DNA from: Escherichia phage vB_EcoM_UP17
Sequence record: LR746137
Length of the DNA: 64,000 bases
Reading direction: 5' to 3' (one strand)
The translations under genes were made by a program, and so were the position numbers. The notes under the pieces are model-generated. The model saw only the letters and a program-made list of their open reading frames with translations, was not told the DNA's origin and ran no database searches. Positions 38,081-53,633 of this stretch are shown one piece after another (position 1 is the stretch's first letter; the number at the start of each line of letters is the position of its first letter).

Positions 38081-38753
38081 GTGCTAGTGCCTCCTCATAG
38101 GAAATTCGGATTTTCCCATTTTTAATATCCTCTAAAGATGCTTTATATTCTTCCCAGTTAATCCCAATAGCAGCTTCTTTCTCTTCTTTTGTCAGATTAG
38201 CAAAAGGCATAGGATTGTTTCCAAAAACATCGTCTGGGTGGATATAAGCCATGATACGAAGTGGACAAGGTGTTGCCTGAATACCATGATTCAAACCAGC
38301 AGCTTGCAAACGGTGTCCCCATTCAGCATCTTCAAAACCATAACCGTGAGTGTAAGGACGGAAATAACCCATCTTCTCAACAACGGCACGAGAATACATT
38401 GCAAATTGACACATTGCAAGTTCCCAGAGAATAACTTCTCCTTTGCTTCCAACAACTTTATCTTTGAAATACTCCGGCATACCAAAGAAATCCCATCCTC
38501 CAGAGACAGCTTGATCTACAAAGTATGTTTCCCATCCCTCCATGACTGGGTAGCAATCGTCGTCAAAAATAAACCAATAATCATAACCTTCTTCATAAAA
38601 CTGGTGCATAAGTTCATTCCTGGCATAAGCTACACCTTTACGATCTGGATCGTTGAATACTCGAAAATCTGCACGTGGATCTGTTACAAGGTAGTCTTTA
38701 AGTGGACGGACACCTACAGTGATAACACCCACTCCGATTTTAATATTTTCCAT
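38070..38753 (-). CDS. Glycosyltransferase, GT-A fold (DxD type)
   Basis: N-terminal IGVGVITVGVRP; DDD (FIFDDDCY) motif and YGFEDAEW block typical of GT2-like enzymes. Confidence 0.45.
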   Translation of the reverse strand: MENIKIGVGVITVGVRPLKDYLVTDPRADFRVFNDPDRKGVAYARNELMHQFYEEGYDYWFIFDDDCYPVMEGWETYFVDQAVSGGWDFFGMPEYFKDKVVGSKGEVILWELAMCQFAMYSRAVVEKMGYFRPYTHGYGFEDAEWGHRLQAAGLNHGIQATPCPLRIMAYIHPDDVFGNNPMPFANLTKEEKEAAIGINWEEYKASLEDIKNGKIRISYEEALAHVK

Positions 38754-38761
38754 TTTCTCTC

Positions 38762-39325
38762 CTAAATAGTTTTACTGTGATCATGACAGTGTAATAAATG
38801 ATGTATAGACCGTTGAGGATTTGTTTGACCTAATCTGTAAATGTGAAACAGATACATTCCCCGCATCAATCCTAACCTCTTTCCTTTTTCATGTAAAGTG
38901 CGAGAGAAAATTAAGTCGAATTGGATAGATTTTTCTTCGAAAGGAATTTCATTCCACAATGATTTTCTAAAAAGCAAAAAGAAACCTGCCAGAGGTGTTC
39001 CGAAAGGAACTTCTTCAACATTTACTTTATGATATTCTCTTGCAATCTTAGCATATTCTATATGGTTTAGAATATCGGGATCATCGTTAATTTGGTTAGA
39101 GAAAAGCTGATAACCACTACCTAACCTGTTACAAGTTGCACCTATTACATCAAAAGGCGGGTTTGACATAACAAGCTCTTCAAGCAAAGATGGTTGATCA
39201 GGTAGGAGGAACATCGTATCGGTATCTCTTAAACACACCCAACTATCATCTGGAAGAACGGCAATGGCTTCATTGATAGCCTTGCCGATATTTCCTGTCA
39301 GATAGGGAGTAATATAATAAATCAT
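38762..39325 (-). CDS. Possible second GT-A-like glycosyltransferase
   Basis: 187 aa; DxD-like CLRDTDTMF motif; adjacent to three other glycosyltransferases. Confidence 0.35.
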   Translation of the reverse strand: MIYYITPYLTGNIGKAINEAIAVLPDDSWVCLRDTDTMFLLPDQPSLLEELVMSNPPFDVIGATCNRLGSGYQLFSNQINDDPDILNHIEYAKIAREYHKVNVEEVPFGTPLAGFFLLFRKSLWNEIPFEEKSIQFDLIFSRTLHEKGKRLGLMRGMYLFHIYRLGQTNPQRSIHHLLHCHDHSKTI

Positions 39326-40648: not shown

Positions 40649-41251
40649 TTATGGACATTCATACCATTCTTTTTTACCACCGAAGGCCATCACCACATCG
40701 CAAATATCCAGACCAGCTTTACCTACACCATATGCTTTCAGCTTCCATTCCCCATCTTCACGAACCAGCGAAGCCACGTGGCAGATTGTGTTGCCAGCTA
40801 CTTCAGGAGCCAGGAAGTCAAAATCCAGAATTTCCACATTGCGCTCGGAGTCGAAGATTTTAAGCATACCTTCAGAAGCATGACCAAAACGTTTCAGACC
40901 TGTATCATCATCAATGGTCAGAACAAAGGCAATCTCTTGTGCATCAGGAGAGATTTTAGCCAGAGTAATATCAATCTGCTCCATGCTGCCAGTTCCATCA
41001 CGAACATCGTCACCAGCGAAGGTAGAACGTTCAGGATCAAACTTGTTAGCATAGCAAACCAGATGACGTGCAGACAGCATTTCAGGATTGCCAGCGGCAT
41101 TATGACGACAAACCAGTGCACTTACATCCAGATCCAGTTTAGAATCAGATTTCCAAGAGAATTCCAGGCGCAGTTCTTTCAGAGCCGGAGCAACTTTCTT
41201 CAGGGAAATTTTTTCGCTAGAACCTTTTTTCAGGGAAATTTTATCAGTCAT
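40649..41251 (-). CDS. TerD-domain protein
   Basis: 200 aa; N-terminal MTDKISLKKGSSEKISLKK; core LDLDVSALV ... GDDVRDGTGSMEQIDITLAKI ... IAFVLTIDD typical of the TerD/CABP fold. Confidence 0.75.
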   Translation of the reverse strand: MTDKISLKKGSSEKISLKKVAPALKELRLEFSWKSDSKLDLDVSALVCRHNAAGNPEMLSARHLVCYANKFDPERSTFAGDDVRDGTGSMEQIDITLAKISPDAQEIAFVLTIDDDTGLKRFGHASEGMLKIFDSERNVEILDFDFLAPEVAGNTICHVASLVREDGEWKLKAYGVGKAGLDICDVVMAFGGKKEWYECP

Positions 41252-41266
41252 CTTTTGTCTCCTCTA

Positions 41267-41536
41267 TTATTTAAGTGTAATACCAGTTACAGTCAATTCT
41301 ACTTCCAAAAGCTTAGATGTGTTTTGGATTGATACTAATTGTGCATGATGGTTTAGTTCTACAGCAGAATAATCATTTTCCCCATCATCTACTTTTAAAT
41401 AAACAATGATTTCACTAAGGTCTAAACCATTTTCGTCAAATGCATTTTCATAGACGAAAGTATCTCCTACATCCAAATCTTTAATGGTAAGGCATCGTTT
41501 ATTTACTTTTTGCTCATCAATTTCGAAGTTTAACAC
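41267..41536 (-). CDS. Small protein, paralog B of a duplicated pair
   Basis: 89 aa; shares (D/K)DLDVG(D/A)TF and V(E/D)L(T/E)VT(G/N)ITLK blocks with 42558..42836. Confidence 0.5.
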   Translation of the reverse strand: MLNFEIDEQKVNKRCLTIKDLDVGDTFVYENAFDENGLDLSEIIVYLKVDDGENDYSAVELNHHAQLVSIQNTSKLLEVELTVTGITLK

Positions 41537-41765
41537 TTCTTCCTCCTAATGTTATCTCCGGTTTGTATATACGAAGAATTATAGCATTTTCATTTTCTTT
41601 GTCAACCCATTCTTCATAATCGGGCCATACATGAATCTCTACTCTACTTACAATATCTTCCATTCGCACAGTCCCAATGAAATACTCTTTGAGACTGCGC
41701 ATAATGAAAGCTTCTCTCTCGCGCCAATAATTTTCTACGACTTGAGAGGCAAGCTCGTCGATCAT
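41517..41765 (-). CDS. Hypothetical protein
   Basis: 82 aa ORF, translationally coupled. Confidence 0.45.
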   Translation of the reverse strand: MIDELASQVVENYWREREAFIMRSLKEYFIGTVRMEDIVSRVEIHVWPDYEEWVDKENENAIILRIYKPEITLGGRSVKLRN

Positions 41766-42556
41766 TTTTTAGCACCTACTTTAACAACCCACTCTCCGAA
41801 CTCTTCAGATAAGAGTTTGTCATAAAGCTCTGAATCTGTCAAGTCTAAATCTTTAATGCCAATAAAACCAACATTATCATAAGCATTTGCCAGTTCTTTC
41901 AGGAAGCCAAACTTCTCATTACCAACGCCAACCATGAACCAATAAATAGGTTTATTCTTATTCTCTTCAATAAGACGACGAACAGCACTAGGATCACCAT
42001 TCTCACCATCCGTTTGGAAGAATACAACACCAGGGGTAACGTCAGCACCTGGTTCAGATACAGCTACAACCTTTTCACGCTCTACAGATACTGTTTCAGT
42101 TTTACCAAGCAGACGATTAAAGAAGCCTTTCTTTGGAGCCTCCTCTTGTACCACTTGTTTAGTGGTAATATATTTGGTAACAGTGCCAAAATACTCGTCG
42201 TAGATATCTGCCATTACAGGGGCGTAGTTTGTTCCACCTCCGATACGAACATTACGCATACATTTACCAACATAATCATCGTAAACGTCTGCTGTTGCTG
42301 GGGTAAGCTCTTGAGAACTCGTATTGAAGGCCCACATATCAATTTGTTCATTATCGTCGAACAGCATACCAAAAGGAAGCAGTTTACCTACAAAATCACT
42401 CACTACCCCACTAGAATATAGACCATGCATACTACCAGAAATATCTAGAGCACATGCTACACGAAGAACAATCTTACCTTCATTCAGGTTCTTATTCTTT
42501 TTCAGAGAGAAAGCAAGGTTTTCTTGACGTTTTTTCAGGCTGATTTTCTCGGACAT
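41762..42556 (-). CDS. vWA-domain protein (TerY-like)
   Basis: MIDAS motif DISGSM; GGTNYAPV; VVFFQTDGENGD; N-terminus MSEKISLKK resembles the start of the TerD-like protein. Confidence 0.6.
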   Translation of the reverse strand: MSEKISLKKRQENLAFSLKKNKNLNEGKIVLRVACALDISGSMHGLYSSGVVSDFVGKLLPFGMLFDDNEQIDMWAFNTSSQELTPATADVYDDYVGKCMRNVRIGGGTNYAPVMADIYDEYFGTVTKYITTKQVVQEEAPKKGFFNRLLGKTETVSVEREKVVAVSEPGADVTPGVVFFQTDGENGDPSAVRRLIEENKNKPIYWFMVGVGNEKFGFLKELANAYDNVGFIGIKDLDLTDSELYDKLLSEEFGEWVVKVGAKK

Positions 42557-42557
42557 A

Positions 42558-42836
42558 TTATTTCTCCTTCTTAAGTGTAATATTGGTAACTTCTAAATCT
42601 ACTTCCACCATATTTGTATCTGGTGGGATGCAATGAGTATAGCCTCGTTGTGCTAGTGATCCATTAATACAGATCGCACTGTTTGTGGAATTTTTAATGA
42701 ACACCAAGTTACGGTAGGTATCCAACCCTGCGTCTTCATAGGCATCATAATACATGAATGTGGCCCCTACGTCAAGATCTTCGAAAGCAATAGGTAAATC
42801 CTGACCTTTTTCTTCTTGAATATTGAATCTAAACAC
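42558..42836 (-). CDS. Small protein, paralog A (start revised to GTG with AGGAGG RBS)
   Basis: GTG at 42836 is preceded by GAGGAG and aligns with the N-terminus of paralog B; the track ATG at 42902 would overlap the upstream gene by 74 nt. Confidence 0.45.
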   Translation of the reverse strand: MFRFNIQEEKGQDLPIAFEDLDVGATFMYYDAYEDAGLDTYRNLVFIKNSTNSAICINGSLAQRGYTHCIPPDTNMVEVDLEVTNITLKKEK

Positions 42837-43392
42837 GCATACCTCCTCTACCAATTTTGAAGCCCAAATCGTAAGCTTCCTTAGTGATCTTTTGTAACTC
42901 ACTTATAGGAAGTGTTACAAGAGGATCATCTTCTTCAATTTCCATCTTGTCATCTTCTGTTTCAATGAGAGTATTATGCACTTTGTGATAAGGGTTGTCA
43001 ACACGTTTAAACTTATTCTTTTCTGTGCTGAAAAAACAATCTGGATCTTCTTCACCATCACCCCAACCTTGATTAGGATCTCCGTCAGATTGTTCTGTAG
43101 GGATTTCACCTGTAAAGTACTCTTCCAGCACCATAGCAATACCGTCCCTTGGATTTGAGGAATGCATTAAATCACAAACCTTACCCCAATCCATAGCCCA
43201 TTCGAACCGTTCACGAACGCCATTTTCATCCTCTTTTCCAGAGAAAACACAACCATAACTATCATAGTTGCCATACATCTCTTCAATAACAACACCGTCT
43301 TTCAAAAGAAAGAGGTAGCAAGGTGATCCGTCGAAAGAAGTAGAAAGGGCAGCTTTGCCCGATTCTTTGCACAAAAAACTAAAACAACCCAT
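42829..43392 (-). CDS. Hypothetical acidic protein
   Basis: 187 aa ORF. Confidence 0.5.
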   Translation of the reverse strand: MGCFSFLCKESGKAALSTSFDGSPCYLFLLKDGVVIEEMYGNYDSYGCVFSGKEDENGVRERFEWAMDWGKVCDLMHSSNPRDGIAMVLEEYFTGEIPTEQSDGDPNQGWGDGEEDPDCFFSTEKNKFKRVDNPYHKVHNTLIETEDDKMEIEEDDPLVTLPISELQKITKEAYDLGFKIGRGGMRV

Positions 43393-43589
43393 TACAAACC
43401 CTCCTTCAGATTATCAAGAGCTACAGTGGTTTCACAAAATTCTCCATAAGCTTTATGATGTTCCAGAAAAGCTTCGGGTCCACCCCAGTCATTATCTTGT
43501 GTATTCCAGCCATCAATAAAAGCATCTTCAATGATTGTGATCAGTTCCTGTCGAGTCAACGTAATGGTATCAGGCTTTGGATTATGCAT
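43392..43589 (-). CDS. Hypothetical small protein
   Basis: 65 aa ORF. Confidence 0.45.
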   Translation of the reverse strand: MHNPKPDTITLTRQELITIIEDAFIDGWNTQDNDWGGPEAFLEHHKAYGEFCETTVALDNLKEGL

Positions 43590-43755
43590 CTTCTTCCTCC
43601 TCTAAAATATGAAACCCATAGCTACAATAGTCCTGAAAGGTTTCGTGTGCAAGATCTTCTATATCCTCTTGAGACATATCATCTTCAATTTCGATATCCA
43701 CAACCTCATTGCATCCACACCAAGCAGTTTCAATATTCACCCGTAATATTTTCAT
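43582..43755 (-). CDS. Hypothetical small acidic protein (57 aa)
   Basis: ATG overlaps the upstream stop (TAATG) and its stop overlaps the downstream start; contains WCGC. Below track cutoff. Confidence 0.3.
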   Translation of the reverse strand: MKILRVNIETAWCGCNEVVDIEIEDDMSQEDIEDLAHETFQDYCSYGFHILEEEEDA

Positions 43756-43952
43756 TACTCCTCCTCCTCATTGAAGTCAATATCTGCAAGGAGTTGGAAT
43801 TTACGGAAGTTACGACAACCTTCATAAATATAACAATCACGACAAACTGCTAGAACACTTGGGGGATATATGCCTCCCATCGGTGCGAATCGTTTTTCGT
43901 CATCATAACGGACACCAATGTCTTCATCAATTATATAGATACGGATTCTCAT
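43755..43952 (-). CDS. Small Cys-containing protein
   Basis: 65 aa; CRDC ... C motif. Confidence 0.4.
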   Translation of the reverse strand: MRIRIYIIDEDIGVRYDDEKRFAPMGGIYPPSVLAVCRDCYIYEGCRNFRKFQLLADIDFNEEEE

Positions 43953-45061
43953 TTACCAAGCCCTCGTTTCACAGCAGCTACCATCCCGTCTTCCAGAGAT
44001 TGAACTTCATTAATATAATCAACACGAGCAGCACGGGCTTCCGTATTGATGCGGTTAGTTTCTTCCAACATCTTAACCAAGTTTTCCTGATCGTGACGCA
44101 GAGTTTCAATATCCAACACTTGACGGTTAGCCAGTGCTGCTGCTTCGATCTGATTCTGTGTAGCAAGATCGCTACCCAGTTTAATTGCCAGGTTAAATTC
44201 ATCAAGAACGTTATTCTGCGTCTCTGCTGCTTTCATTTGACGTAAGCTCTCGATATACATTGAGAAGTTAGCAGAGTAAGCAGGAATAACATTATTTACT
44301 ATGTTACGCGCAGATCGCATTAAGCTTGCAGAAACTTTTTGCATACCTTGTACACGCGGTCCCATTTGGACACACAGTAGGCGCAATGCCTTTAAATCTG
44401 CAATACGAATCTCCAGAAGATCCAAAGTGTCTCGGATCACTTGTCGCTGTTCTACTGCATCTTCTGGAAGAGCAGCCAAAGCTTGTTCTTCTTTTTCATA
44501 GGTTGCTGTTAGAAGCTGCATATCTCGGTTCAAACTTGCAGCATATTGTCCAATAGCTTGATGCAGTTTTTCAAGATATACCAAGGAATCTTCTTCTTTG
44601 CGAATATCCATTTGAAGGTTCTTTACCAACTCTTCAATACGGTTATTAACATTATCAAACTCCCCAAACAGGTCTTCTTTCATACCCATAACTTTTTTAA
44701 TGAGTTTAGTAATACCTTTGCTTTGTTTAATAGAGTTTGGATCAAGTTGTTTTGCCTGTTTAATCAAAGCTGTGAGTCGTTCACTCATCTGATCGCCTTG
44801 ATTACTACGTTGATGTTTTAATACCTCGGCATTCAAGGAACGCAAGGTTGTTCCTGCCTCTGCCCCAATCTCTTCGATCTCTTGTCGGGTCATAGAAGGC
44901 AAAACTGGAACGTCTTGTGGTGCCGCTGGTGCATAAACAGGACTGGCATCTAACACGCTTGGAGCGAATACAGATTTACTTGCATCTGTTGTTGCAGCAA
45001 ATACGCTCATTTCAGGCTTCTTCTGACCACCAGTAGCTGCTTTTAAAAATGGACTTGTCAT
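43949..45061 (-). CDS. TelA/KlaA-like (toxic anion resistance family) protein, tentative
   Basis: 370 aa, largely helical/coiled-coil composition; size and placement inside a cluster with TerD, TerC and vWA genes. Call is by gestalt, not a specific motif. Confidence 0.4.
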   Translation of the reverse strand: MTSPFLKAATGGQKKPEMSVFAATTDASKSVFAPSVLDASPVYAPAAPQDVPVLPSMTRQEIEEIGAEAGTTLRSLNAEVLKHQRSNQGDQMSERLTALIKQAKQLDPNSIKQSKGITKLIKKVMGMKEDLFGEFDNVNNRIEELVKNLQMDIRKEEDSLVYLEKLHQAIGQYAASLNRDMQLLTATYEKEEQALAALPEDAVEQRQVIRDTLDLLEIRIADLKALRLLCVQMGPRVQGMQKVSASLMRSARNIVNNVIPAYSANFSMYIESLRQMKAAETQNNVLDEFNLAIKLGSDLATQNQIEAAALANRQVLDIETLRHDQENLVKMLEETNRINTEARAARVDYINEVQSLEDGMVAAVKRGLGK

Positions 45062-45648
45062 TCTTCATTCTCCTCTTCTGCATCTCTTATATATGGTGAA
45101 ACACCGTACTCTTTAGCTACTTTAACCCAATCGTCCCATTTATACAACCATAATTTTCCTTCGGTCCCTTCTTTATCTGATTTCAACCACATATTCGGTT
45201 GCTTACCTGGGTACATGCGATTAGGTTTACGATTATAACCTCTAACACATCTTGTCGCAAACCTATCTACCAGAACAAGAACATATTTATATTCGTGGTT
45301 CAACGGCTCTTTGGAAGTGGCTTTAGGATTAGCCCCTAATTCTGCTGCCAGTTTTTGCCAATGAGCACCGTGCCTACTAAACTTACCCATACAACCATCA
45401 ATAGCATGAGCAATTTCGTGCTTCATTGTATCCACGATCATATCTCTTGTGGAGTTCTTATGCAAGTGCCAATTTACAACAACAATTTTATCTCGGTAGT
45501 TGCACCAACCGAAAGAGTTATTCACTTTGTTTCTAACACAAGCTTTATATCCTGCTTCACGTAACATGTTGTAGTAAACAGGAAAATCTTCTTTTATTTC
45601 CTGCATCACTTCCCACCACAAGAGTTGCAAGTCTCTCTCGGTATGCAT
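45058..45648 (-). CDS. Zinc metallopeptidase-like protein (HExxH, SprT-like)
   Basis: HEIAH motif in MKHEIAHAIDG; 196 aa; acidic C-terminal tail. Confidence 0.45.
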   Translation of the reverse strand: MHTERDLQLLWWEVMQEIKEDFPVYYNMLREAGYKACVRNKVNNSFGWCNYRDKIVVVNWHLHKNSTRDMIVDTMKHEIAHAIDGCMGKFSRHGAHWQKLAAELGANPKATSKEPLNHEYKYVLVLVDRFATRCVRGYNRKPNRMYPGKQPNMWLKSDKEGTEGKLWLYKWDDWVKVAKEYGVSPYIRDAEEENEE

Positions 45649-45651
45649 AAC

Positions 45652-46245
45652 TTACACCTTAAAAGCGAAATGCGTGGTCGTGGCTTCAAAATCAGGGCCA
45701 GATAAACTTGCACTGAAATCTGAAATATTTGTAATTAAAAAGCTTTTATGCATACCTAACACAGCCACGCTTTCAATATCTTCTACTAACATTTCAATCA
45801 TGTTAGAAACATGGCTGAACGTAGAGTTTTGTTTTTTGATGGTGTAGAAAGAAAGATTCCCACCTGCTATATAAGATACCTCTTCAAAATCTTTAATCGT
45901 ATATTGTGTGCCATCAGTAAAGAAAATGGTAGCTTTATTAGTAGCACGTTTCTTGTTTTTTGGTCCTTTTTTACGTTTACTGCGAGTAGGCAAACCGTTT
46001 GGAAATACCGTAGCTACAAATTCTTCAGGAGAAACCTCCTTACCGAAATCATAACCGTAAGAAACAGCGTCTATAAACTCGTCGTCTTCATTTTTAAAAT
46101 AATGAAAATAGGGCCAATTTGAGAGATTATCAAGCATCTTATGCTCATCCACAGCAGAGAACGTATCCCTCAAAGCCCGTGTGATTTGCAAAGCATTAGG
46201 CAAACTTTTAACACCTGTAATGGAAGTACGAATAGAAATTGTCAT
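45652..46245 (-). CDS. Hypothetical protein
   Basis: 197 aa ORF. Confidence 0.5.
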   Translation of the reverse strand: MTISIRTSITGVKSLPNALQITRALRDTFSAVDEHKMLDNLSNWPYFHYFKNEDDEFIDAVSYGYDFGKEVSPEEFVATVFPNGLPTRSKRKKGPKNKKRATNKATIFFTDGTQYTIKDFEEVSYIAGGNLSFYTIKKQNSTFSHVSNMIEMLVEDIESVAVLGMHKSFLITNISDFSASLSGPDFEATTTHFAFKV

Positions 46246-46259
46246 TGTTTTTCTCCTTA

Positions 46260-46697
46260 TTAACGTCGCTTGCTACGAGATGAACTCTTTTTACTTAAAG
46301 GGCTATTGTAAGATTTACGAGTTGTATAGCTACTATTTGTTTTAAAAGTTTGTCTCGGCTTTTCATAAGTTTTTATCTCTTGTTTAGGCTTACTATAAAA
46401 ATTAGTTTTCGGTTTAGGTGTATTATAATGCTTATTAATAATCGTTCTGTTATCGTTATAATCCCCACTGCTACGATTACTACCGCCACTCATCATATGC
46501 CCTAACAACATACCTGTAGCAAACTCACCAACACCGCTACTACTAGAACCGCCACCATTGTTGATAATAGTTGTATCTCCGTCAGATCCTTGTTGAGCGT
46601 ATTGTTGAGGAGGTTGTTGGTATTGTGCAGGATTTGTTTCATCCTCGCAAGCTGTTAAAAAGATACAACCAATTAAAATCAGGGCTAGTTTTTTCAT
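46260..46697 (-). CDS. Lipoprotein (start revised to internal ATG)
   Basis: MKKLALILIGCIFLTAC signal peptide with lipobox; GAGG RBS upstream of the ATG at 46697; Gly/Ser-rich mature region. Confidence 0.5.
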   Translation of the reverse strand: MKKLALILIGCIFLTACEDETNPAQYQQPPQQYAQQGSDGDTTIINNGGGSSSSGVGEFATGMLLGHMMSGGSNRSSGDYNDNRTIINKHYNTPKPKTNFYSKPKQEIKTYEKPRQTFKTNSSYTTRKSYNSPLSKKSSSRSKRR

Positions 46698-46884
46698 ATT
46701 TGCTTTCCTCGTTTTGGCTATTAATACATCTGTGTTTGAAATCTCCAGAGAAGCAATAAAGTTGCTCTCCATCTCGGTATAAACTCACTTTACTGCCGTT
46801 GATTACGCTTGTCAATACAAAAATTACAACAAACAACCCTATTGCAAAACAAATATTTTCAAACACAATCAACAAGTATTTCAT
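46639..46884 (-). CDS. Small membrane protein
   Basis: 81 aa; hydrophobic N-terminus LLIVFENICFAIGLFVVIFVLT; ATG overlaps the upstream stop (ATGA); its 3' end overlaps the lipoprotein start by about 59 nt. Confidence 0.4.
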   Translation of the reverse strand: MKYLLIVFENICFAIGLFVVIFVLTSVINGSKVSLYRDGEQLYCFSGDFKHRCINSQNEESKYEKTSPDFNWLYLFNSLRG

Positions 46885-47231
46885 TTTAAAAATACCTCAT
46901 CATCAGTTTCATTATCCCAGAAGAACAAATCCCAACCATTAGGATCATTCCACTTGGCTGCTGGAGAAGTCCAGAGTTGTTCGATATCAATATTCAAAAC
47001 TTCACCGTTTCGTTTTGAAACAGCTTTAGTTAATTCCCAACGAGATACAGGTTCTACCTCTCCTGAACCACTTCCACAACAAGCTACTACGTTAGGAGGA
47101 AGGTTAATTGGATCTTTGGTCACAATCATAACGCTTACCCCAGGGTAAACTTTTGAAAGATAATCTGAAACGTAATCCACATCACCACATAAGTCCCAAA
47201 CAAGTTCTTGAATTTCATCAAAATTGCTCAT
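46881..47231 (-). CDS. Hypothetical acidic protein
   Basis: 116 aa ORF. Confidence 0.5.
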   Translation of the reverse strand: MSNFDEIQELVWDLCGDVDYVSDYLSKVYPGVSVMIVTKDPINLPPNVVACCGSGSGEVEPVSRWELTKAVSKRNGEVLNIDIEQLWTSPAAKWNDPNGWDLFFWDNETDDEVFLK

Positions 47232-47240
47232 AAGTCTCTC

Positions 47241-47266
47241 CTATAAAATAGCCTCCCGAAGGAGGC
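47241..47266 (-). terminator. Rho-independent terminator (minus strand) after the TerC-like gene
   Basis: GCCTCC-CGAA-GGAGGC hairpin (47251-47266) followed on the minus strand by UAUUUUAUAGG. Confidence 0.5.
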
Positions 47267-47273
47267 TCATCTA

Positions 47274-48248
47274 TTAAACAGCAGCTTCTTCTTTTTCAGG
47301 GAAGATAAAGCTTGCAATAACACCAAGAGCTAATGTGCCTAGAACAATCATCAAACTTACGTTAGGGGAAATATCATGCGGGAGGAATGACCACTTGGCA
47401 TGAAGTGTTTCACCGAACGGGTGATACATAAGTTTAGCACCAACAAACACCAGAACCACAGCAACAGCTTTCTCTAAGTGAACCAAATATTTCACAGCAA
47501 CACTTAACACAAAGAAAAGTGCACGTAAACCAAGAACAGCCATCAGCATTGCAGAATAAACTAGCAGAGGTTCTTGTGTCACACCGATCACAGCCGGAAC
47601 TGAATCAAAAGAGAAGACAATATCTGTAAGCTCAATAACAAACACACAAAGAAGAGCAGGAGTTGCATATTTAATACCATTCTTAATGGTAATGAACTTT
47701 TCACCATCCAGCGCATTGTGCACAGGCAGAACTTTACCTACTAAACGAACAGCCCAATGCTTAGAGTAATCAATATCCTCTTCTTCGTCACCACCTTTGA
47801 TGATAGCCACGGCAGACCAAGCTACAATCAAACCGAACAACACTTGGACCGACCAATGAAGGTTAAACAAAGCGGTCCCTGCTGCAACAAAAATACCTCG
47901 GAAGACAATGGCTCCTGCAATCCCCCAAAGTAGAATTTTATGTTGGAGATGTGTGCTCTTAATTCCAAAGCTTGCAAAAATTGCCATGAACACCATCAGG
48001 TTATCTACAGAAAGACTCTTTTCCAACACATAACCACTTAGGAAAAGCGCGGCAAACTCTTTACCATGTTCTACCCAAATGAATGCGTAATATCCTAAAG
48101 CTAAAGCAATCCAAAAAACAGACCAAAGCAAAGCAGATTTAATTCCAATTTCTTTATTCTCTTTATGACCAAAGAAATCGATACCAATAGACAATGCCAA
48201 AATACTAATTAAAACAACTACATCAATAATTGGGAAACCGAGTTGCAT
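47274..48248 (-). CDS. TerC-family integral membrane protein
   Basis: 324 aa, multiple hydrophobic helices; EKSLSVDNLMVFMAIF matches the TerC/Alx signature. Confidence 0.7.
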   Translation of the reverse strand: MQLGFPIIDVVVLISILALSIGIDFFGHKENKEIGIKSALLWSVFWIALALGYYAFIWVEHGKEFAALFLSGYVLEKSLSVDNLMVFMAIFASFGIKSTHLQHKILLWGIAGAIVFRGIFVAAGTALFNLHWSVQVLFGLIVAWSAVAIIKGGDEEEDIDYSKHWAVRLVGKVLPVHNALDGEKFITIKNGIKYATPALLCVFVIELTDIVFSFDSVPAVIGVTQEPLLVYSAMLMAVLGLRALFFVLSVAVKYLVHLEKAVAVVLVFVGAKLMYHPFGETLHAKWSFLPHDISPNVSLMIVLGTLALGVIASFIFPEKEEAAV

Positions 48249-48327
48249 TCTTTTCTCCTCTCTTTGCGGGGAACTATTCCCCGCTTCATGTGATATATCT
48301 TACTCTTTTTAAGAATTATGTCAACAC

Positions 48328-48555
48328 TTATTTTGTTGAATGAGAGGAAAAGATTCCTCGTAATACCGCCAGAATAAACGAAACACAAACCACGGTCCAG
48401 AAGGTTACTGGGACAGTGATATCTGCATGACCCATAACTTCAGCAACATAGTTGTAAGCCAGCAACAGTAACCAAGCTGGAATCAAACTAAGCATAAAAG
48501 CAATAACAAAAAAGCTTACCACTGCAACAATACCTGCAAAAACACCCATACTCAT
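48328..48555 (-). CDS. Small membrane protein (two TM helices)
   Basis: 75 aa, almost entirely hydrophobic. Confidence 0.5.
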   Translation of the reverse strand: MSMGVFAGIVAVVSFFVIAFMLSLIPAWLLLLAYNYVAEVMGHADITVPVTFWTVVCVSFILAVLRGIFSSHSTK

Positions 48556-48561
48556 CTCCTC

Positions 48562-49035
48562 TTAAAGTTTATAAATAGTCACATCGTGACCTGTTTTTAC
48601 TAAAGTTTCTTCAATCATCACTTGGATGATAGCCCAATTGCCTCCAGCATATCCAGCGCCAATCATAGGTAAGCCGATCTTACATTTTTGGTCACGGAGA
48701 AGCAAATCATTAGCCATAGCTATTAGTGCATCGTAAAGTGCATCATAGTCCAACTGACGACCTTTAGCATTGTATCCGTAACGGTATTGCCCGTATAGAT
48801 TATATACCAAAGGGTCTGATTGTTCGTCTGGCACCCCTAAACTAAAACAACCTAGTTTACTTTGATCACCAGCCATTGTGTCTAAGTCTGCTGCATATGC
48901 GTAAGGAAATGCTTGTTTGATTTGTGGGGCAATACCTGCCCCCATATTACACATACAGTTGCAACAATGAGCAATAACAGTTACTTCACCTGCTTTAGCG
49001 GCATCAATAAGATTACCTGTTTTCATTTTAAGCAT
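48562..49035 (-). CDS. Macro-domain protein (ADP-ribose binding/processing)
   Basis: VIAHCCNCMCNMGAGIA and IGAGYAGG resemble the macro-domain VNAAN...GGGV and G-rich phosphate-binding loops; 157 aa. Confidence 0.55.
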   Translation of the reverse strand: MLKMKTGNLIDAAKAGEVTVIAHCCNCMCNMGAGIAPQIKQAFPYAYAADLDTMAGDQSKLGCFSLGVPDEQSDPLVYNLYGQYRYGYNAKGRQLDYDALYDALIAMANDLLLRDQKCKIGLPMIGAGYAGGNWAIIQVMIEETLVKTGHDVTIYKL

Positions 49036-49047
49036 TTTAGCTCCTTA

Positions 49048-49875
49048 TTACAGAATGTGTTGTTTTGTGTAACGATCCAAGAATTCAAAGTTTTCAGCAT
49101 ACTTTGAAATTCGGTTGTAACCTTCTCCCAAACATCCGAAGAAAAGTTGCTCTACATAGTAGTGTGGCAATTGGCTAAGAATGATTTTGAAGTCTTCGTG
49201 ATTTTGGCCCATAAGATACTTAATAGGACGAACAAGGCACTGTGCATCACGTTCTTCATTAATCATTTTAACAAACGCTTCTGGTGTATTAATGTAGTTA
49301 AAATTCAGTTTAGCTTCGGTATCTGCTTGATTACCTTCATATTTTGCAAAATACAAGAAGTAAACATCATTTTTAACTTGATTTTCATCAAGGATCTCAA
49401 TCAGTTTGTCTTCATGCGTTCCAGTGATATTTACATCATCAATGAATACAAGCTTCTTATCACCCCAGAATTCTTTGTTGCAGTAGAATGTATCCCCATC
49501 AATAAGTTTCTTACGACTAGCTTTATCCAAGAAACCATAATCGTTGATATAGCTAACTTTACGATGAATAATGTCCAGTTCTGCTGAACGACCTTGATCA
49601 TATTGTGATTGCAACATGTTAAAGTAATTAATAAAATGATCTGTCATCATTGTTGCAGCATTATGCACATGGTTGTAAGGAGAAGGAATGATAACAAATT
49701 GTTCCCCAATATGTTTCATTGCCACTTGAGCAAAAAACTGAAGTGCCAATTCTTTACCCATACGACGCGCGGCTTGGTTACTACCAAATTTCAATTTTGA
49801 ATAATCTTGGATATCAAAAGTAGCAGTTTCCAGGTCATCAAATTTATTTGCAAAAATTTGAGTTTGATTACGCAT
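49048..49875 (-). CDS. Phosphoribosyltransferase (PRTase-type) protein
   Basis: KKLVFIDDVNITGTHED matches the PRPP-binding hhhhDDhxxTGxT signature; 275 aa. Confidence 0.55.
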   Translation of the reverse strand: MRNQTQIFANKFDDLETATFDIQDYSKLKFGSNQAARRMGKELALQFFAQVAMKHIGEQFVIIPSPYNHVHNAATMMTDHFINYFNMLQSQYDQGRSAELDIIHRKVSYINDYGFLDKASRKKLIDGDTFYCNKEFWGDKKLVFIDDVNITGTHEDKLIEILDENQVKNDVYFLYFAKYEGNQADTEAKLNFNYINTPEAFVKMINEERDAQCLVRPIKYLMGQNHEDFKIILSQLPHYYVEQLFFGCLGEGYNRISKYAENFEFLDRYTKQHIL

Positions 49876-50524
49876 TTACAATTTCTCCTCTTTTAAGTTT
49901 CTCTAGTAAGTCATTAGGGTTCTTAATATGACAGAAGTTAAATCCTAAGTCAACACATTTTCCATCATATTCTTCACTATCGCCTACGTGCAATACTTCG
50001 TGCCCTAACAGAGGGATCGGAGAATACGTGAGCGTGCGAGCAAAGAATCGCGGATCTGGTTTACAAAGTAAAGCTTCATCCGAGAAATGGGTGAACTCAA
50101 AACAATTCCAACTATCAAACTTACAAGCACGACGCAGGATATCCCCTGATATGAAGTTGGTATTGCTCTTAATACTCAAATCATAACGTCCCGAAAGATA
50201 CAGCAAGTACATCGGCAGATCCACGGCTACGTGTGGTGGAAACTTAAGGAACCACTGTTCACACTCGAAACGAAGCTTTGCAGACTTCCAAGGTGTTATC
50301 CCAAGTTCAGAACCAAGTCTTTCCCAGGCGTATGCTGCACACTCGGCTTTGCCTTGAAGTGCTGCATTATCCAGTTCCTTTTTGATCTTCTTATAAGCTG
50401 CTCTTGCTTCCACTTCCGTAATATCTCCATATTTTGCGATAGTCCAGGCTCGCATGTCTGCGTAATTGGAGTTTGCTGTGATCAGTGTGTTCCATACATC
50501 AAAAGAGATATGTTTAATAGTCAT
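49868..50524 (-). CDS. HAD-superfamily hydrolase/phosphatase
   Basis: Motif I-like ISFDVWNTLI (DxYGTL-type variant), KPDP motif, HVGDSEEYD motif IV. Confidence 0.55.
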   Translation of the reverse strand: MTIKHISFDVWNTLITANSNYADMRAWTIAKYGDITEVEARAAYKKIKKELDNAALQGKAECAAYAWERLGSELGITPWKSAKLRFECEQWFLKFPPHVAVDLPMYLLYLSGRYDLSIKSNTNFISGDILRRACKFDSWNCFEFTHFSDEALLCKPDPRFFARTLTYSPIPLLGHEVLHVGDSEEYDGKCVDLGFNFCHIKNPNDLLEKLKRGEIVNA

Positions 50525-50525
50525 A

Positions 50526-51131
50526 TTAAGCCCACCATGCGTCTAAGTTAAGATTACTGTCCACTACCACTTGTTCTATGTGGTAGCCTTTTATCTGTAT
50601 CCCACTGTTCAAGAGCATATCATACGCTTCATTGAAACGCAACTTATCTTCTGCGGAATATAAGCGAGCATTATAAAATCGGTAATCAACTTCTTCAGCA
50701 TTAGAAGAAATACGGAAGAAGTTTGTTTCTACTTCGGGATCACTTGCTGAAGTCTTAATGTGAACTTCTCCGTAATTTTCTTTACTTAGATCCATGAAAA
50801 GAACACAGGCAACATGTTTAAACATTCGTTCCAGTTTGTAACGAACAACATTGAAACCTGCATTCTCAAGTTTTTCTACACACTGCAACATTAAAGTAGT
50901 GTCGAGATCGCTTTGATACTTTGTTAACATACGATCACGTTGAGACTTTGTATCCCGATGTAAATCAATTGTTGTGCATTTGGCACCAATAATCTTAGCT
51001 GCTTTCATCAACTCTTCAGAACTAACGTTAGATAAAGTAAGATGAAAATGGGCTTTCCACACTTTTTTAGCAGGGACACCAAAAGATTTATCCCCACTAT
51101 TCGGCATGTTGACTACTACACTATGTTGCAT
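50526..51131 (-). CDS. Hypothetical protein
   Basis: 201 aa ORF between the HAD gene and the nrd genes. Confidence 0.5.
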   Translation of the reverse strand: MQHSVVVNMPNSGDKSFGVPAKKVWKAHFHLTLSNVSSEELMKAAKIIGAKCTTIDLHRDTKSQRDRMLTKYQSDLDTTLMLQCVEKLENAGFNVVRYKLERMFKHVACVLFMDLSKENYGEVHIKTSASDPEVETNFFRISSNAEEVDYRFYNARLYSAEDKLRFNEAYDMLLNSGIQIKGYHIEQVVVDSNLNLDAWWA

Positions 51132-51146
51132 TACTTATCTCCTCAC

Positions 51147-51371
51147 TTAAAATGGAAGTCTTTGAAGTTCATCTCCTCCGATATCAAGTAATTTAGCAAC
51201 ATCTCGATCAGAAAGCAACTCTTTTCTTTGTAAAATATCCACAAGGGTTGCAAGAATGTCCTTAACGTCCCGATCACTGTTCTTCAAAAGTTCTCCTGCC
51301 GTCCCTACTCTATCTCCTACAGCAAAATATGTAACCATGAAACCTCCTAAGTTAATCTGATTGCCAACCAC
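51147..51371 (-). CDS. Hypothetical small protein
   Basis: 74 aa ORF. Confidence 0.45.
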   Translation of the reverse strand: MVGNQINLGGFMVTYFAVGDRVGTAGELLKNSDRDVKDILATLVDILQRKELLSDRDVAKLLDIGGDELQRLPF

Positions 51372-51822
51372 TTGCCGTTTTGGTCCATAATCTTTGATTA
51401 TCTGACCCTCTGAAAGGTTTTGTAGTTGGATTGTTTATTTCATACTTTCCGTCTACAATAATGTCAACAAGATTTTTAATATACAAAGGCACTTCCTCAA
51501 AAGTATATCCTGTATACACCATTATATCTTTGCTTGACCCATAAACGTCTCTAACCTTTTCTATAAGGTTTTTAACATTGTAAATATTCTGCGGATCTAA
51601 TGGCTCCCCTCCTAAAATTGTTAAACCTTTTACAAACGGTCTTGACAAATCTTTTAAAACTTGCTCTACATTTTCGTGAGTGAACGGTTTCCCATAAGAA
51701 TAAGACCAGGCTTTTTGGTTAAAACAGCCACGACAACCGTGGCTACAACCACTAACCCAGAGGGAGCACCTAACTCCCTCACCATTAATAAGATCTACAG
51801 GTTCATATCCTGCAAAATTCAA
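51352..51822 (-). CDS. nrdG: Anaerobic ribonucleotide reductase activating protein (radical SAM)
   Basis: CSHGCRGC radical-SAM cysteine cluster; 156 aa; 4-nt overlap with the upstream NrdD gene. Confidence 0.75.
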   Translation of the reverse strand: MNFAGYEPVDLINGEGVRCSLWVSGCSHGCRGCFNQKAWSYSYGKPFTHENVEQVLKDLSRPFVKGLTILGGEPLDPQNIYNVKNLIEKVRDVYGSSKDIMVYTGYTFEEVPLYIKNLVDIIVDGKYEINNPTTKPFRGSDNQRLWTKTASGWQSD

Positions 51823-53633
51823 AGATGTTTCTCCCTTTGCAAAACTTCCTGCATTTTACCTTTGTTGTAAGGCCGTGAATTAGGGGCAGAAAGATACCCT
51901 GATACACGTCTAACTACAGAAATAGTTTCTTCTTCATGGTTGCCACAATCAGGACACTCAAACCCTTTAGCCGTTGCCTTAAATTCTCCATGAAAACCAC
52001 ACTTAAAGCATTGATCCACGGGCTGATTAATACCAAAATAGTGAATATGTTCATAAGCGTAGTCTACTAAAGTCTCCAAAGCTTCTAAGTTATTCTTTAA
52101 GTTTGGTGTTTCGACATAACTTATGTTACCACCATTACTAATCTGTGCAAAACCTGCTTCATAATCCCATTTTTCAAAAGGATTTGTTACCAACCACACA
52201 GGTTGATGAAAAGAGTTAGTAAGATAGTCTCTTTCTACCAAACCTGGGTATTTTTCATTTAAAGCTGTTGCAAACTTATAGCACAAAGATTCTGCTGGAG
52301 TTCCATAGAGACTAAACGCCAGCTTAGATCGTTCTTTAAACACAGCACACACATCTTTCATATGTTGCAGAATGCTTTTACCAAGTTCCTTTTTATCTTT
52401 TTCTTCTGGATAAAGGATTTCCAAAGCTTCGGCAAGACCTACATAACCAATACTAATAGAAGCATAACCACCTTCAAACAAAACACCAATTTCATCATTG
52501 GCATTTAAACGCGCTAAAGCCCCTTCCATGAAAAGAATAGGGTTTTCAGATGCTTTGGTATGTCTGATACGGTTTACACGTAGCATGTGAGCATCGTAGG
52601 CTATCTCCATATGTTTATTAAGAAGATCGGTGAAAGATTCTCCTTTACTTCTCGCTTCCGCAGCGATCAGAGGTAAGTTGATAGAAACTACTCCAAGGTT
52701 GAATCGTCCATCGTATTTTTCTCCTTGTTCGGTGGCATAGTACGACAAAAAGGAACGACAACCCATACTCGTAACAGTACCATCTGCTGATCCCGTAACT
52801 TCTTTGTTCAAAGGAACAGAAATAAAATCTGGATAAATACGATCAGCACAACATGCCAAAGCTTGTTGCTTAAGGTCATAGTTAGGATCACTAGGTTTCA
52901 TGTTAACACCTTCTTGTAAAAAGAAAATAACTTTAGGGAATACAGGCGTTACATGATCTTTGCCTAGACCGTTACTATGCACTTTAAGATAGTTAGCTGT
53001 AATCATTCTGCCAAAAACAGAGGTATCCAGACCCATACTGATTGTAATAAAAGGAGATTGTCCATTAACACTCATTAAAGTATTAACCTGATACAAGAGA
53101 GTTTGCATAGCATCATATACATCTTGTTCGGTCATTTCTAGGGCTTCTTTCCTTGCATAACAACCGTAGCGACGTTTGGTTATCTCCATGTTTTTAAGGA
53201 AACTAGCTTCAACATAAGGACTAAGACCTTTATCAATGTGCGCACACGTCTGACCTCCATACTGACTGGAGGCAACAGCTTGGATAATTTGAGTTAGCAC
53301 TGTGGTAGCTACCCCAATAGATTTTGGTTTTTCTATCTGTGCGGCTCCGATCTTAAAACCATTCTCTAACATATCTTGATAATTAACAAGACAACAGTTT
53401 GTAAGAGGAGAGAGTAGATAATCCAAGTCGTGAATATGTCCAAAACCTTCTGTATGCCACTCTGACAAGTTTTTTGGCAGTATCTGTGTCATTGCCATAT
53501 GTTTGCTTAAAATCCCCGCCAAGAGATCCCTATGCGTGTTAACGAGGTGGGAAGGTTTGTTTGCATTCTCTCTAGTGTATGTTTCTGAAGTGCGATCTAA
53601 AAAAGAAAAAACATCTTGGTACAAATCTTTCAT
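51819..53633 (-). CDS. nrdD: Anaerobic ribonucleoside-triphosphate reductase
   Basis: 604 aa; C-terminal zinc ribbon CFKCG ... CPDCG and glycyl-radical motif RVSGYLS. Confidence 0.8.
   Translation of the reverse strand: MKDLYQDVFSFLDRTSETYTRENANKPSHLVNTHRDLLAGILSKHMAMTQILPKNLSEWHTEGFGHIHDLDYLLSPLTNCCLVNYQDMLENGFKIGAAQIEKPKSIGVATTVLTQIIQAVASSQYGGQTCAHIDKGLSPYVEASFLKNMEITKRRYGCYARKEALEMTEQDVYDAMQTLLYQVNTLMSVNGQSPFITISMGLDTSVFGRMITANYLKVHSNGLGKDHVTPVFPKVIFFLQEGVNMKPSDPNYDLKQQALACCADRIYPDFISVPLNKEVTGSADGTVTSMGCRSFLSYYATEQGEKYDGRFNLGVVSINLPLIAAEARSKGESFTDLLNKHMEIAYDAHMLRVNRIRHTKASENPILFMEGALARLNANDEIGVLFEGGYASISIGYVGLAEALEILYPEEKDKKELGKSILQHMKDVCAVFKERSKLAFSLYGTPAESLCYKFATALNEKYPGLVERDYLTNSFHQPVWLVTNPFEKWDYEAGFAQISNGGNISYVETPNLKNNLEALETLVDYAYEHIHYFGINQPVDQCFKCGFHGEFKATAKGFECPDCGNHEEETISVVRRVSGYLSAPNSRPYNKGKMQEVLQREKHL

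Follow-up and report, generated by a model that had tools for sequence, protein, structure and literature searches.

The 64,000-nt stretch of Escherichia phage vB_EcoM_UP17 analyzed here (sequence record LR746137; hereafter the window) carries adjacent genes for a HAD-superfamily hydrolase, a phosphoribosyltransferase (PRTase) and a Macro domain protein. In the following, PRT3 denotes the Pfam PRTase_3 gene or its protein, TM75 a 75-aa membrane protein and p201 a 201-aa protein. The Macro and PRTase genes are genuine and adjacent, occupy exactly positions 48562-49035 and 49048-49875, and are both on the minus strand, as is every gene in this part of the window. A first-pass annotation, made from the sequence alone, had placed the Macro gene upstream of the PRTase gene and had the two followed by a HAD phosphatase. 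Since all three are encoded on the minus strand, this order had to be reversed: the order of transcription is HAD, PRTase, Macro, with the Macro gene downstream of the PRTase gene and the HAD gene ahead of it.

Organization of the region

The genes and features of the region, in the order of transcription, are listed below.

51819-53633, minus strand: NrdD
51352-51822, minus strand: NrdG
50526-51131, minus strand: p201, 201-aa protein directly 5′ of HAD (phrog_22504)
49868-50524, minus strand: HAD-superfamily hydrolase, REG-2-like, subfamily IA (phrog_14393, E 3e-117; Pfam Hydrolase, 21.2 bits; weak TIGR02252)
49048-49875, minus strand: type I PRTase, Pfam PRTase_3 (ComF-like), 275 aa (PF15610, E 2e-41)
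48562-49035, minus strand: Macro domain protein, Gln-type ALC1-like (SCO6735 / T4 Tk.4-AdfM type), 157 aa (PF01661, phrog_335)
48328-48555, minus strand: TM75, 75-aa predicted membrane protein (phrog_16065)
48297-48324, minus strand: sigma-70-like promoter TTGACA-16-TAAGAT ahead of TerC (consensus match only)
47274-48248, minus strand: TerC/Alx family integral membrane protein (PF03741, E 3e-40; TIGR03718, 319.9 bits, above cutoff)
47250-47267, minus strand: terminator-like hairpin after TerC (AGCCTCCTTCGGGAGGCT and a T-rich tail)
45058-45648, minus strand: SprT-like protein, interspersed among the Ter genes
43949-45061, minus strand: TelA-like toxic-anion-resistance protein (PF05816, E 3e-33; phrog_5890)
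41762-42556, minus strand: vWA-TerF-like protein (PF10138, E 1.7e-37)
40649-41251, minus strand: TerD-domain protein (PF02342, E 3e-28)

A 74-aa open reading frame (ORF) lies between NrdG and p201, and three small ORFs follow the TerC hairpin ahead of the SprT-like gene. The intergenic spacing throughout the region is 1-12 nt. The PRT3-Macro junction measures 12 nt, the HAD and PRT3 genes overlap by 8 nt, and there is no terminator between the three genes. TerC is bracketed by its own sigma-70-like promoter and terminator-like hairpin (window 47250-48324), which suggests a separately expressed unit; the record of phage phAPEC8 annotates the same site upstream of TerC as a host-dependent promoter.

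The phage is a phAPEC8-like Phapecoctavirus: bases 47000-52000 of the window were 98-99% identical to ∼60 published genomes of this genus (phAPEC8, PNJ1809-36, anhysbys and others), and the genes of the region keep 63-79% amino-acid identity in diverged relatives. The record of phage SKA64 already labels them 'REG-2-like HAD hydrolase', 'phosphoribosyltransferase family protein', 'Macro_Poa1p_like', TerC, TelA, vWA-TerF-like and TerD.

HAD and PRTase_3 form an obligate pair

PRT3 loci were gathered from viral contigs, one-per-species bacterial genomes, metagenome assemblies, phage records and plasmids. The ORFs of each locus were searched with the window proteins and with cassette proteins of unrelated phages, and 10 kb on either side of PRT3 were examined. 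A HAD gene was located directly 5′ of PRT3 in all loci, from phages and bacteria alike (31/31). The phage loci include Phapecoctavirus, phi92-like phages and several unrelated phage contigs of 95-350 kb, jumbo phages among them, and the bacterial loci include rhizobial chromosomes (Ensifer/Sinorhizobium), rhizobial plasmids and metagenome-assembled genomes (MAGs) of Akkermansiaceae, Haliea and Fimbriiglobus. Wherever gene calls existed, the two genes were separated by no more than 15 nt or overlapped. The PRTase ATG of the window falls within the final HAD codons (ATGCGTAA), just downstream of a GAGGAG ribosome-binding site. A hydrolase or HAD is also annotated beside many of the PRTase matches in phage records and rhizobial plasmids.

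We scanned 1.84 billion representative proteins exhaustively with HMMER and obtained 492 PRT3 relatives, and 149 representatives were inspected. Eighteen of them (∼12%) were 460-560 aa long, which is the size of HAD-PRTase_3 fusions; five of this size were scanned with Pfam, which confirmed an N-terminal HAD in four. The order of the domains in the fusions is that of the genes, and 16 fusions carry the HAD motif I of the family near the N-terminus. Outside this size class, the 841-aa protein P0299 has the arrangement PRTase-HAD-PRTase_3, and the Pfam scan identified two long relatives as tandem PRTase_3-PRTase proteins. The strict gene order, the translational coupling and the recurrent fusion indicate that HAD and PRTase_3 are a single functional unit; they form an obligate, often fused pair. 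Of the short pathway proposed in the first-pass annotation, the part formed by PRTase and HAD is thus strongly supported, as a pathway of two steps.

The metagenomic multi-domain relatives are P0292, P0307, P0372, P0396, P0299, P0370 and P0379; HAD-PRTase_3 fusions are ∼500 aa long.

PRT3 is predicted to be a type I PRTase with an extra domain

PRT3 matched PF15610 with an E-value of 2.2e-41 and 142.5 bits (cutoff 28.7), residues 11-266 covering positions 9-264 of the 264-position profile. The phosphoribosyl pyrophosphate (PRPP) loop reads V-F-I-D146-D147-V-N-I-T151-G152-T153-H154-E155. D146, D147, T151, G152 and T153 are invariant in 53 PRT3 sequences, and H154, E155 and R105 are invariant in the family as well. 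The loop IDDVxITGTHE, with its PRPP-binding residues, is thus retained, which bears out the earlier PRTase call.

A sequence search of the PDB with PRT3 gave no real match, and fold comparison was therefore used. The AlphaFold (AF2) model, built on 53 homologues, had a predicted local distance difference test score (pLDDT) of 93.4. Foldseek returned 81 PDB matches at E ≤ 1e-3; the top 50 listed were all of the type I PRTase fold, nearly all HGPRT, plus ComF and PyrR. The best matches were to HGPRT (E 1.5e-6) and Helicobacter pylori ComF (7p0h, E 2e-5). The model points to a type I PRTase core that is extended at the C-terminus by a helical domain of ∼90 residues.

PRT3, ComFC/ComF-like proteins and HGPRT have in common the core fold of type I PRTases and a PRPP loop of the form acidic-acidic-...-TGxT. 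ComF-like PRTases have an invariant Arg after the second strand (PMC5512222), and R105 of the window protein follows the second strand in the same way. PRT3 differs from ComF and HGPRT in being only 10-16% identical to them and in its additional helical domain, and from ComF also in having no ComFA helicase partner. We found no literature on PF15610/PRTase_3.

NARP1/2/3, which reconstitute NAD+ in phage infection, are likewise phage-encoded ribosyl-transfer enzymes and act against NAD-depleting or ADP-ribose-based immunity. In contrast to PRT3, which gave only PRTase_3/type I matches, the NARP enzymes are Nampt-like (type II PRTase), Prs-like, NadR-like or PnuC-like. The partner in NARP1/2 is an adenylyltransferase or an ADP-ribose pyrophosphokinase, whereas the fixed partner of PRT3 is a HAD. 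The neighborhood scanned in the window contained neither an NMNAT nor a Prs-like gene. A function of PRT3 as an NAD-salvage PRTase received no support, since both Pfam and fold matches were to PRTase_3/type I proteins and nothing tied it to nicotinamide.

The HAD protein has an unusual motif I

The window HAD scored 21.2 bits against Pfam Hydrolase, below the cutoff of 26.4; its orthologues and fused homologues pass clearly. The catalytic motifs are present (nucleophile D9, motif II SNTNF, motif III K-P and motif IV GDxxxxD), and motifs I-IV are kept, with few exceptions, across the orthologues of the 29 aligned loci. Motif I reads D-x-W/Y-N/G/R-T in the 29 aligned sequences, the window protein having D9-V-W-N-T with Trp at Asp+2. 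The 17 fused HAD-PRTase_3 proteins inspected have D-x-W-(G/N/D/A)-T, again with Trp at Asp+2. The nearest solved relative, the uncharacterized archaeal structure 2om6, has the same FDVWNTL motif.

The pair is frequently accompanied by Ter genes

The first-pass annotation had missed a set of Ter genes around the PRTase-HAD pair (TerC, TelA, vWA-TerF and TerD; 40.6-50.5 kb). All four Ter families are present in this part of the window: TerC (PF03741), TerD (PF02342), TelA (PF05816) and vWA-TerF (PF10138). Together with PRTase_3 and HAD the set is spread over ∼10 kb (40649-50524), and unrelated genes lie between its members (SprT-like, small ORFs, Macro and TM75).

Of 14 independent phage lineages, 8 have Ter genes within 10 kb of HAD-PRT3, and so does one bacterial MAG. 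Four unrelated large-phage contigs have a cassette of TelA, vWA-TerF, two conserved unknowns, TerC, (unknown), HAD, PRTase_3, TerD and (unknown), the order being rearranged in one of the four. In three further phage loci and in the Haliea MAG, TerC, TerD, TelA or vWA genes lie within 10 kb. The vWA-TerF protein of the window gave phmmer matches to the cassette vWA proteins of unrelated jumbo phages (E 1e-30 to 8e-45), and its TerD protein gave matches to the cassette TerD proteins.

Anantharaman, Iyer and Aravind reportedly predicted in 2012 a Ter-linked biosynthetic module for a 'nucleoside-like metabolite'. Two later papers describe Ter systems as predicted to include a PRTase and a HAD that make a nucleoside- or nucleotide-like compound (PMC7824862 and PMC5512222, both citing Anantharaman et al. 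2012). As in the published module, the PRTase and HAD of the window stand beside TerC, TerD, TelA and vWA (TerF-like) genes. Ter systems have also been noted in some jumbo phages and related smaller ones, where they may serve to compete with superinfecting phages (Iyer et al. 2021, PMC7824862).

The enzymes of the classical Klebsiella ter plasmid are PRTase_2+TRSP, StiP+PELOTA, ATPgrasp_Ter, an HpcH lyase and a PF12710 HAD. PRTase_2+TRSP, StiP, ATPgrasp_Ter, the C-C lyase and TerB were all absent from the ORFs scanned between 38 and 55.6 kb of the window (most of at least 90 aa, a few smaller). Orthology of the window PRT3 and HAD with the PRTase and HAD of this plasmid was ruled out, as their Pfam families differ and there was no BLASTP similarity. 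Judged by its protein families, the phage module is an analogous, reduced and non-orthologous Ter variant with one PRTase and one REG-2-like HAD.

Instead of working for the Ter set, HAD-PRTase_3 could be an autonomous metabolic or counter-defense cassette, acting for example in nucleotide or nucleoside salvage or in the synthesis or destruction of a signaling nucleotide, with its proximity to Ter genes reflecting shared regulation rather than shared function. Consistent with this possibility, the pair occurs alone in Ensifer/Sinorhizobium, Akkermansiaceae and Fimbriiglobus genomes and in rhizobial plasmids. The phage lineages without Ter genes have it near RNA ligase, DUF2828/DUF7788 and 2H-SAK genes instead, and TerC of the window has promoter-like and terminator-like sites of its own. 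However, TelA, vWA-TerF, TerC and TerD co-localize with the pair recurrently and in differing orders, both in phages that share little else (L002/L035/L037, L036, L017, L019, L020 and the window) and in the Haliea MAG, and the inclusion of PRTase and HAD enzymes in Ter systems had been predicted independently (PMC7824862). We consider autonomy of the pair a possible but rather unlikely explanation.

Two Ter-less loci have HAD-PRT3 near DUF2828/DUF7788 and RNA ligase genes (L004, 5152-6555; L005, 8967-10562), in L005 also near 2H-SAK, and this setting could be an alternative functional context for the pair. In two of the large phages with Ter and HAD-PRTase genes, members of the Acb2/Tad1-hairpin and Acb3 families are encoded no more than 10 kb away (L035, 18368-18592; L037, 16932-17846), which indicates a region rich in counter-defense genes.

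The Macro protein resembles anti-DarT2 macrodomains

The Macro protein gave a marginal match to PF01661 (22.4 bits, cutoff 22; residues 23-135) and matched phrog_335 with an E-value of 1e-53. In a sequence search of solved structures, the best match was SCO6735 (5e3b, E 3.5e-12), followed by BT1257, TARG1, DarG and Poa1p; the similarity to Poa1p was marginal (E 2e-3). Both glycine-rich ADP-ribose-binding loops are kept in the alignment (loop 1, N26-C-M-C-N-M-G32-A-G34-I-A; loop 2, P123-M-I-G126-A-G128-Y-A-G-G132), and the macro domain call of the first-pass annotation was thereby confirmed. Across 14 sequences including SCO6735, BT1257 and TARG1, G34, P123, G126 and G128 are invariant and G32 and G132 are at least 90% conserved. 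Further conserved positions of the protein are H23, N26, Q83 and W134. The K84 and Asp125 columns of TARG1 in this alignment were placed by inspection. The Lys84/Asp125 dyad of TARG1 is absent from the window protein, which has Q83 and A130 there. N26 and Q83 align with N27 and Q85 of SCO6735, and the Asn and Gln are common to the window Macro protein, T4 Tk.4, SCO6735 and BT1257.

BLASTP aligned the protein with T4 Tk.4 (NP_049723.1) over 124 aa (E 1e-20). Knockouts of T4 tk.4 are sensitive to DarTG2, and the gene has been named adfM, for anti-DarT factor Macrodomain (bioRxiv 10.1101/2025.11.20.689424, 2025). Chimallivirus AdfM (PhiKZ gp104) strips DarT2-made ADP-ribose from DNA (PMC13309987, 2026). 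T4 Tk.4/AdfM is, like the window protein, a small stand-alone phage macrodomain (∼155 aa), and the two have the motifs HxCNC...MGxGIA, NLYxQ and IGAG...GNW in common. PhiKZ AdfM and DarG have a catalytic Lys (K78 and K80, respectively), whereas the window Macro protein and T4 Tk.4 have Gln at this position. The genomic positions also differ: T4 tk.4 lies between vs and tk, and the window Macro gene lies between the PRTase and a membrane protein gene inside the Ter region. The T4 record confirms that the T4-like Macro homologue directly after vs is at the tk.4 position.

SCO6735 (Streptomyces coelicolor, ALC1-like, PDB 5e3b) cleaves thymidine-linked ADP-ribose from DNA, rescues cells from DarT and needs Asn27 and Gln85, without the catalytic lysine of TARG1 and DarG (PMC9411070). 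The catalytic Asn/Gln pair is kept and the TARG1 dyad is absent in both SCO6735 and the window protein. SCO6735 differs in being a cellular protein, 29% identical to the window Macro protein; it has the DNA-binding lysines K34 and K89 and a mobile loop.

The PADLOC DarG model matched the Macro protein (E 4e-10). The NCBIfam DarG model NF048014 gave only 35.2 bits against a cutoff of 250, over residues 3-49, and the protein has 157 aa compared with 338 model positions. The sub-cutoff score and the absence of a DarT-binding domain indicate a stand-alone macrodomain rather than DarG. We found no literature on the macro domain in phAPEC8. These comparisons suggest that the protein is most likely an AdfM-type macrodomain of the Gln class, with a predicted activity as a DNA ADP-ribosyl glycohydrolase. 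On account of the homology to T4 AdfM and SCO6735, the earlier suggestion that the HAD, PRTase and Macro genes might reverse an ADP-ribosylation-based host defense suits the Macro gene, but only that gene and not the trio.

Another ADP-ribose conjugate than DarT2-modified DNA could be the substrate. The candidates are ADP-ribosylated protein or RNA (made by host ADP-ribosyltransferases, e.g. RNA-targeting ones, or by those of phages), O-acetyl-ADP-ribose and ADP-ribose-1″-phosphate. SCO6735 also removes protein-linked ADP-ribose (PMC9411070), and macro domains, which 41% of myoviruses carry, span the full range of ADP-ribose substrates (PMC9503650). Public labels for the Macro family include 'phosphatase', 'Poa1p-like' and 'O-acetyl-ADP-ribose deacetylase'. 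On the other hand, T4 Tk.4, the sole experimentally tested phage member of the subfamily, gave a specific DarTG2 phenotype, the Asn/Gln pair needed for cleavage of thymidine-linked ADP-ribose is kept, and the similarity to Poa1p is weak. A different conjugate as the substrate thus appears unlikely.

The Macro gene is distributed independently of the pair

tblastn detected the Macro family in 2,979 phage records and PRT3 in 156, a ∼19-fold difference. The phages with Macro include T4-like, FelixO1-like, Vi1-like and PAK_P1-like phages and KVP40. In a profile search, Macro was located within 10 kb of PRT3 only in the Phapecoctavirus/Justusliebigvirus/Klebsiella-phage lineage, with the exception of L016, where it was 6 kb from PRT3 with genes in between. 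TM75 is always 3′ of Macro in this lineage, and the Macro-TM75 pair was present in L001 and L007-L011; two of these loci, L008 and L009, have 0.5-0.9 kb of extra DNA between PRT3 and Macro. None of the 13 other independent lineages examined had a Macro gene adjoining HAD-PRT3. Similarly, no Macro domain was detected in nine long PRT3 relatives scanned by Pfam, and no Macro-PRTase fusion was seen. The Macro-PRTase adjacency is one evolutionary event in one lineage. Since it is confined to one lineage and the genome is tightly packed, it is weak evidence for a shared pathway.

Macro, PRTase and HAD might nevertheless act in one three-step pathway, as the first-pass annotation had proposed, with the Macro protein binding, dephosphorylating (as Poa1p does) or deconjugating the ribosyl-phosphate product. 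The three genes adjoin one another in the same direction, with junctions that overlap or measure 12 nt, and Phapecoctavirus, Justusliebigvirus and related Klebsiella phages all keep the order HAD-PRT3-Macro-TM75-TerC. The Macro class has weak similarity to the ADP-ribose-1″-phosphate phosphatase Poa1p, and a HAD without the usual general-acid Asp would leave room for another phosphatase. However, the 13 lineages with HAD-PRT3 and no adjoining Macro, the distant Macro gene of L016 and the extra DNA in L008 and L009 argue against this pathway, as does the absence of Macro from the nine long relatives, although HAD fusions are common. In addition, the Macro family is far the commoner, with T4, FelixO1 and Vi1-like phages not among the PRT3-bearing phages listed, and the Macro protein is far closer to DNA-ADP-ribose hydrolases than to Poa1p. 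The independent distribution of Macro and the obligate pairing of HAD with PRT3 make the three-enzyme pathway quite improbable. The membership of Macro in the pathway was thus not upheld.

Other genes and records

The gene directly upstream of HAD encodes p201, which belongs to a narrow family of 34 clusters with invariant HxHxT and HxKT motifs. Two PADLOC 'AbiEi' models matched it at E 4e-13, and no match was found in Pfam, NCBIfam or PDB sequences. Its structural model had a pLDDT of 82.8 and no convincing fold relative; an assignment as a 2H-phosphoesterase was accordingly unsupported. Homologues occur away from HAD-PRT3, a distant one directly beside the Acb1 gene (directed against cyclic oligonucleotide-based anti-phage signaling, CBASS) in L038. 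Because p201 has homologues elsewhere and the phi92-like loci L007 and L011 gave no match to it, it was rejected as part of the core module. It is lineage-specific, probably lies outside the core module and may be an unrecognized counter-defense gene.

Two adjacent genes at 38070-38753 and 38762-39325 are glycosyltransferase-like and are so annotated in phAPEC8 and SKA64. The former had a weak match, below cutoff, to TAGT (TET-associated glycosyltransferase; E 1e-3), a lead for DNA modification.

Several public records with these genes deserve comment. A 13-kb contig binned as 'MAG: Proteobacteria bacterium' (L022, JAEZZU010000022.1) has a PRTase 100% identical to that of the window and the same flanking gene order, and is therefore probably a phage contig in a bacterial bin. 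The records MG065650, MG065656, MG065659 and OP562383 ('Campylobacter phage B15/C3/C5' and 'Acinetobacter phage ABPW7') contain close matches to these Escherichia coli phage genes, with 97.7-98.6% identity over the 5-kb region in B15 and ABPW7. The host labels of the B15/C3/C5 and ABPW7 records look doubtful.

Discussion

With moderate confidence, we favor the explanation that the region contains two functionally separate units which are neighbors in one lineage, namely a HAD-PRT3 pair serving the Ter set and a stand-alone Macro protein acting against DarT2. From the domain identities, the active-site motifs, the linkage and fusion of HAD and PRTase, the Ter context and the distribution of Macro, we infer the following substrates, product and roles. 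The PRTase would condense PRPP with a base or amine to yield an N-ribosyl 5′-phosphate, and the HAD would process the phosphate of this product or of the reaction. The module would serve the TerC, TelA, vWA-TerF and TerD proteins of the phage itself. Superinfection exclusion or stress tolerance of the infected cell has been suggested for the 'nucleoside-like metabolite' branch of phage Ter systems. The Macro protein would hydrolyze ADP-ribose from thymidine in DarT2-modified single-stranded DNA and thereby restore replication.

Several observations weigh against this explanation. The Asp+2 general acid/base (DxD) is absent from all 29 aligned HADs and the 17 fusions, which makes the label 'phosphatase' provisional and conventional phosphomonoesterase activity doubtful; substrates with good leaving groups might suit the enzyme better, or it might hydrolyze pyrophosphate. 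The base substrate of PRT3 cannot be read from sequence or fold, and the Foldseek template modeling scores (TM-scores) to HGPRT and ComF are as low as 0.35-0.47 because of the extra domains. HAD-PRT3 has no Ter neighbors in 6 of the 14 phage lineages and in most bacteria examined (rhizobia and Akkermansiaceae), so that the link to Ter is frequent but not obligate, and the classical enterobacterial ter cluster uses enzymes that are not orthologous to the window PRT3 and HAD. With T4 Tk.4 the Macro protein shares only 36% identity, and its class can also act on protein-linked ADP-ribose, so its substrate could differ. Finally, Macro-TM75 is kept between PRT3 and TerC within Stephanstirmvirinae, and a lineage-specific functional link is conceivable. 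In the most far-reaching version, the unusual HAD, with Trp for the general-acid Asp, and PRTase_3 would be one bifunctional enzyme whose ribosylated small-molecule product controls or supplies a TerC/TelA/TerD/vWA membrane complex, and Macro-TM75 would have been recruited in Stephanstirmvirinae to bind or degrade that molecule and not DarT-modified DNA; we consider this the least probable of the explanations.

Both kinds of genes have been described before, the AdfM function in 2025-2026 and the Ter PRTase/HAD module in 2012 and 2021, and their adjacency is ordinary. The present analysis adds the obligate pairing and frequent fusion of HAD and PRTase_3, the position of Macro outside this pair and the unusual HAD motif. 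Its value lies mainly in correct annotation, and it contains nothing unexpected for specialists. Therapy-relevant phAPEC8- and phi92-like phages are among the ∼150 phage genomes in which these genes carry the labels 'hypothetical', 'orotate phosphoribosyltransferase' or 'phosphatase'. The Macro gene may be annotated as a probable anti-DarTG2 factor, and this would predict host range on E. coli and Klebsiella strains bearing DarTG2. With two enzymes, often fused, against six genes in the enterobacterial version, the HAD-PRTase_3 unit is minimal and offers a convenient entry to the Ter-associated metabolite, which has long been predicted and never isolated.

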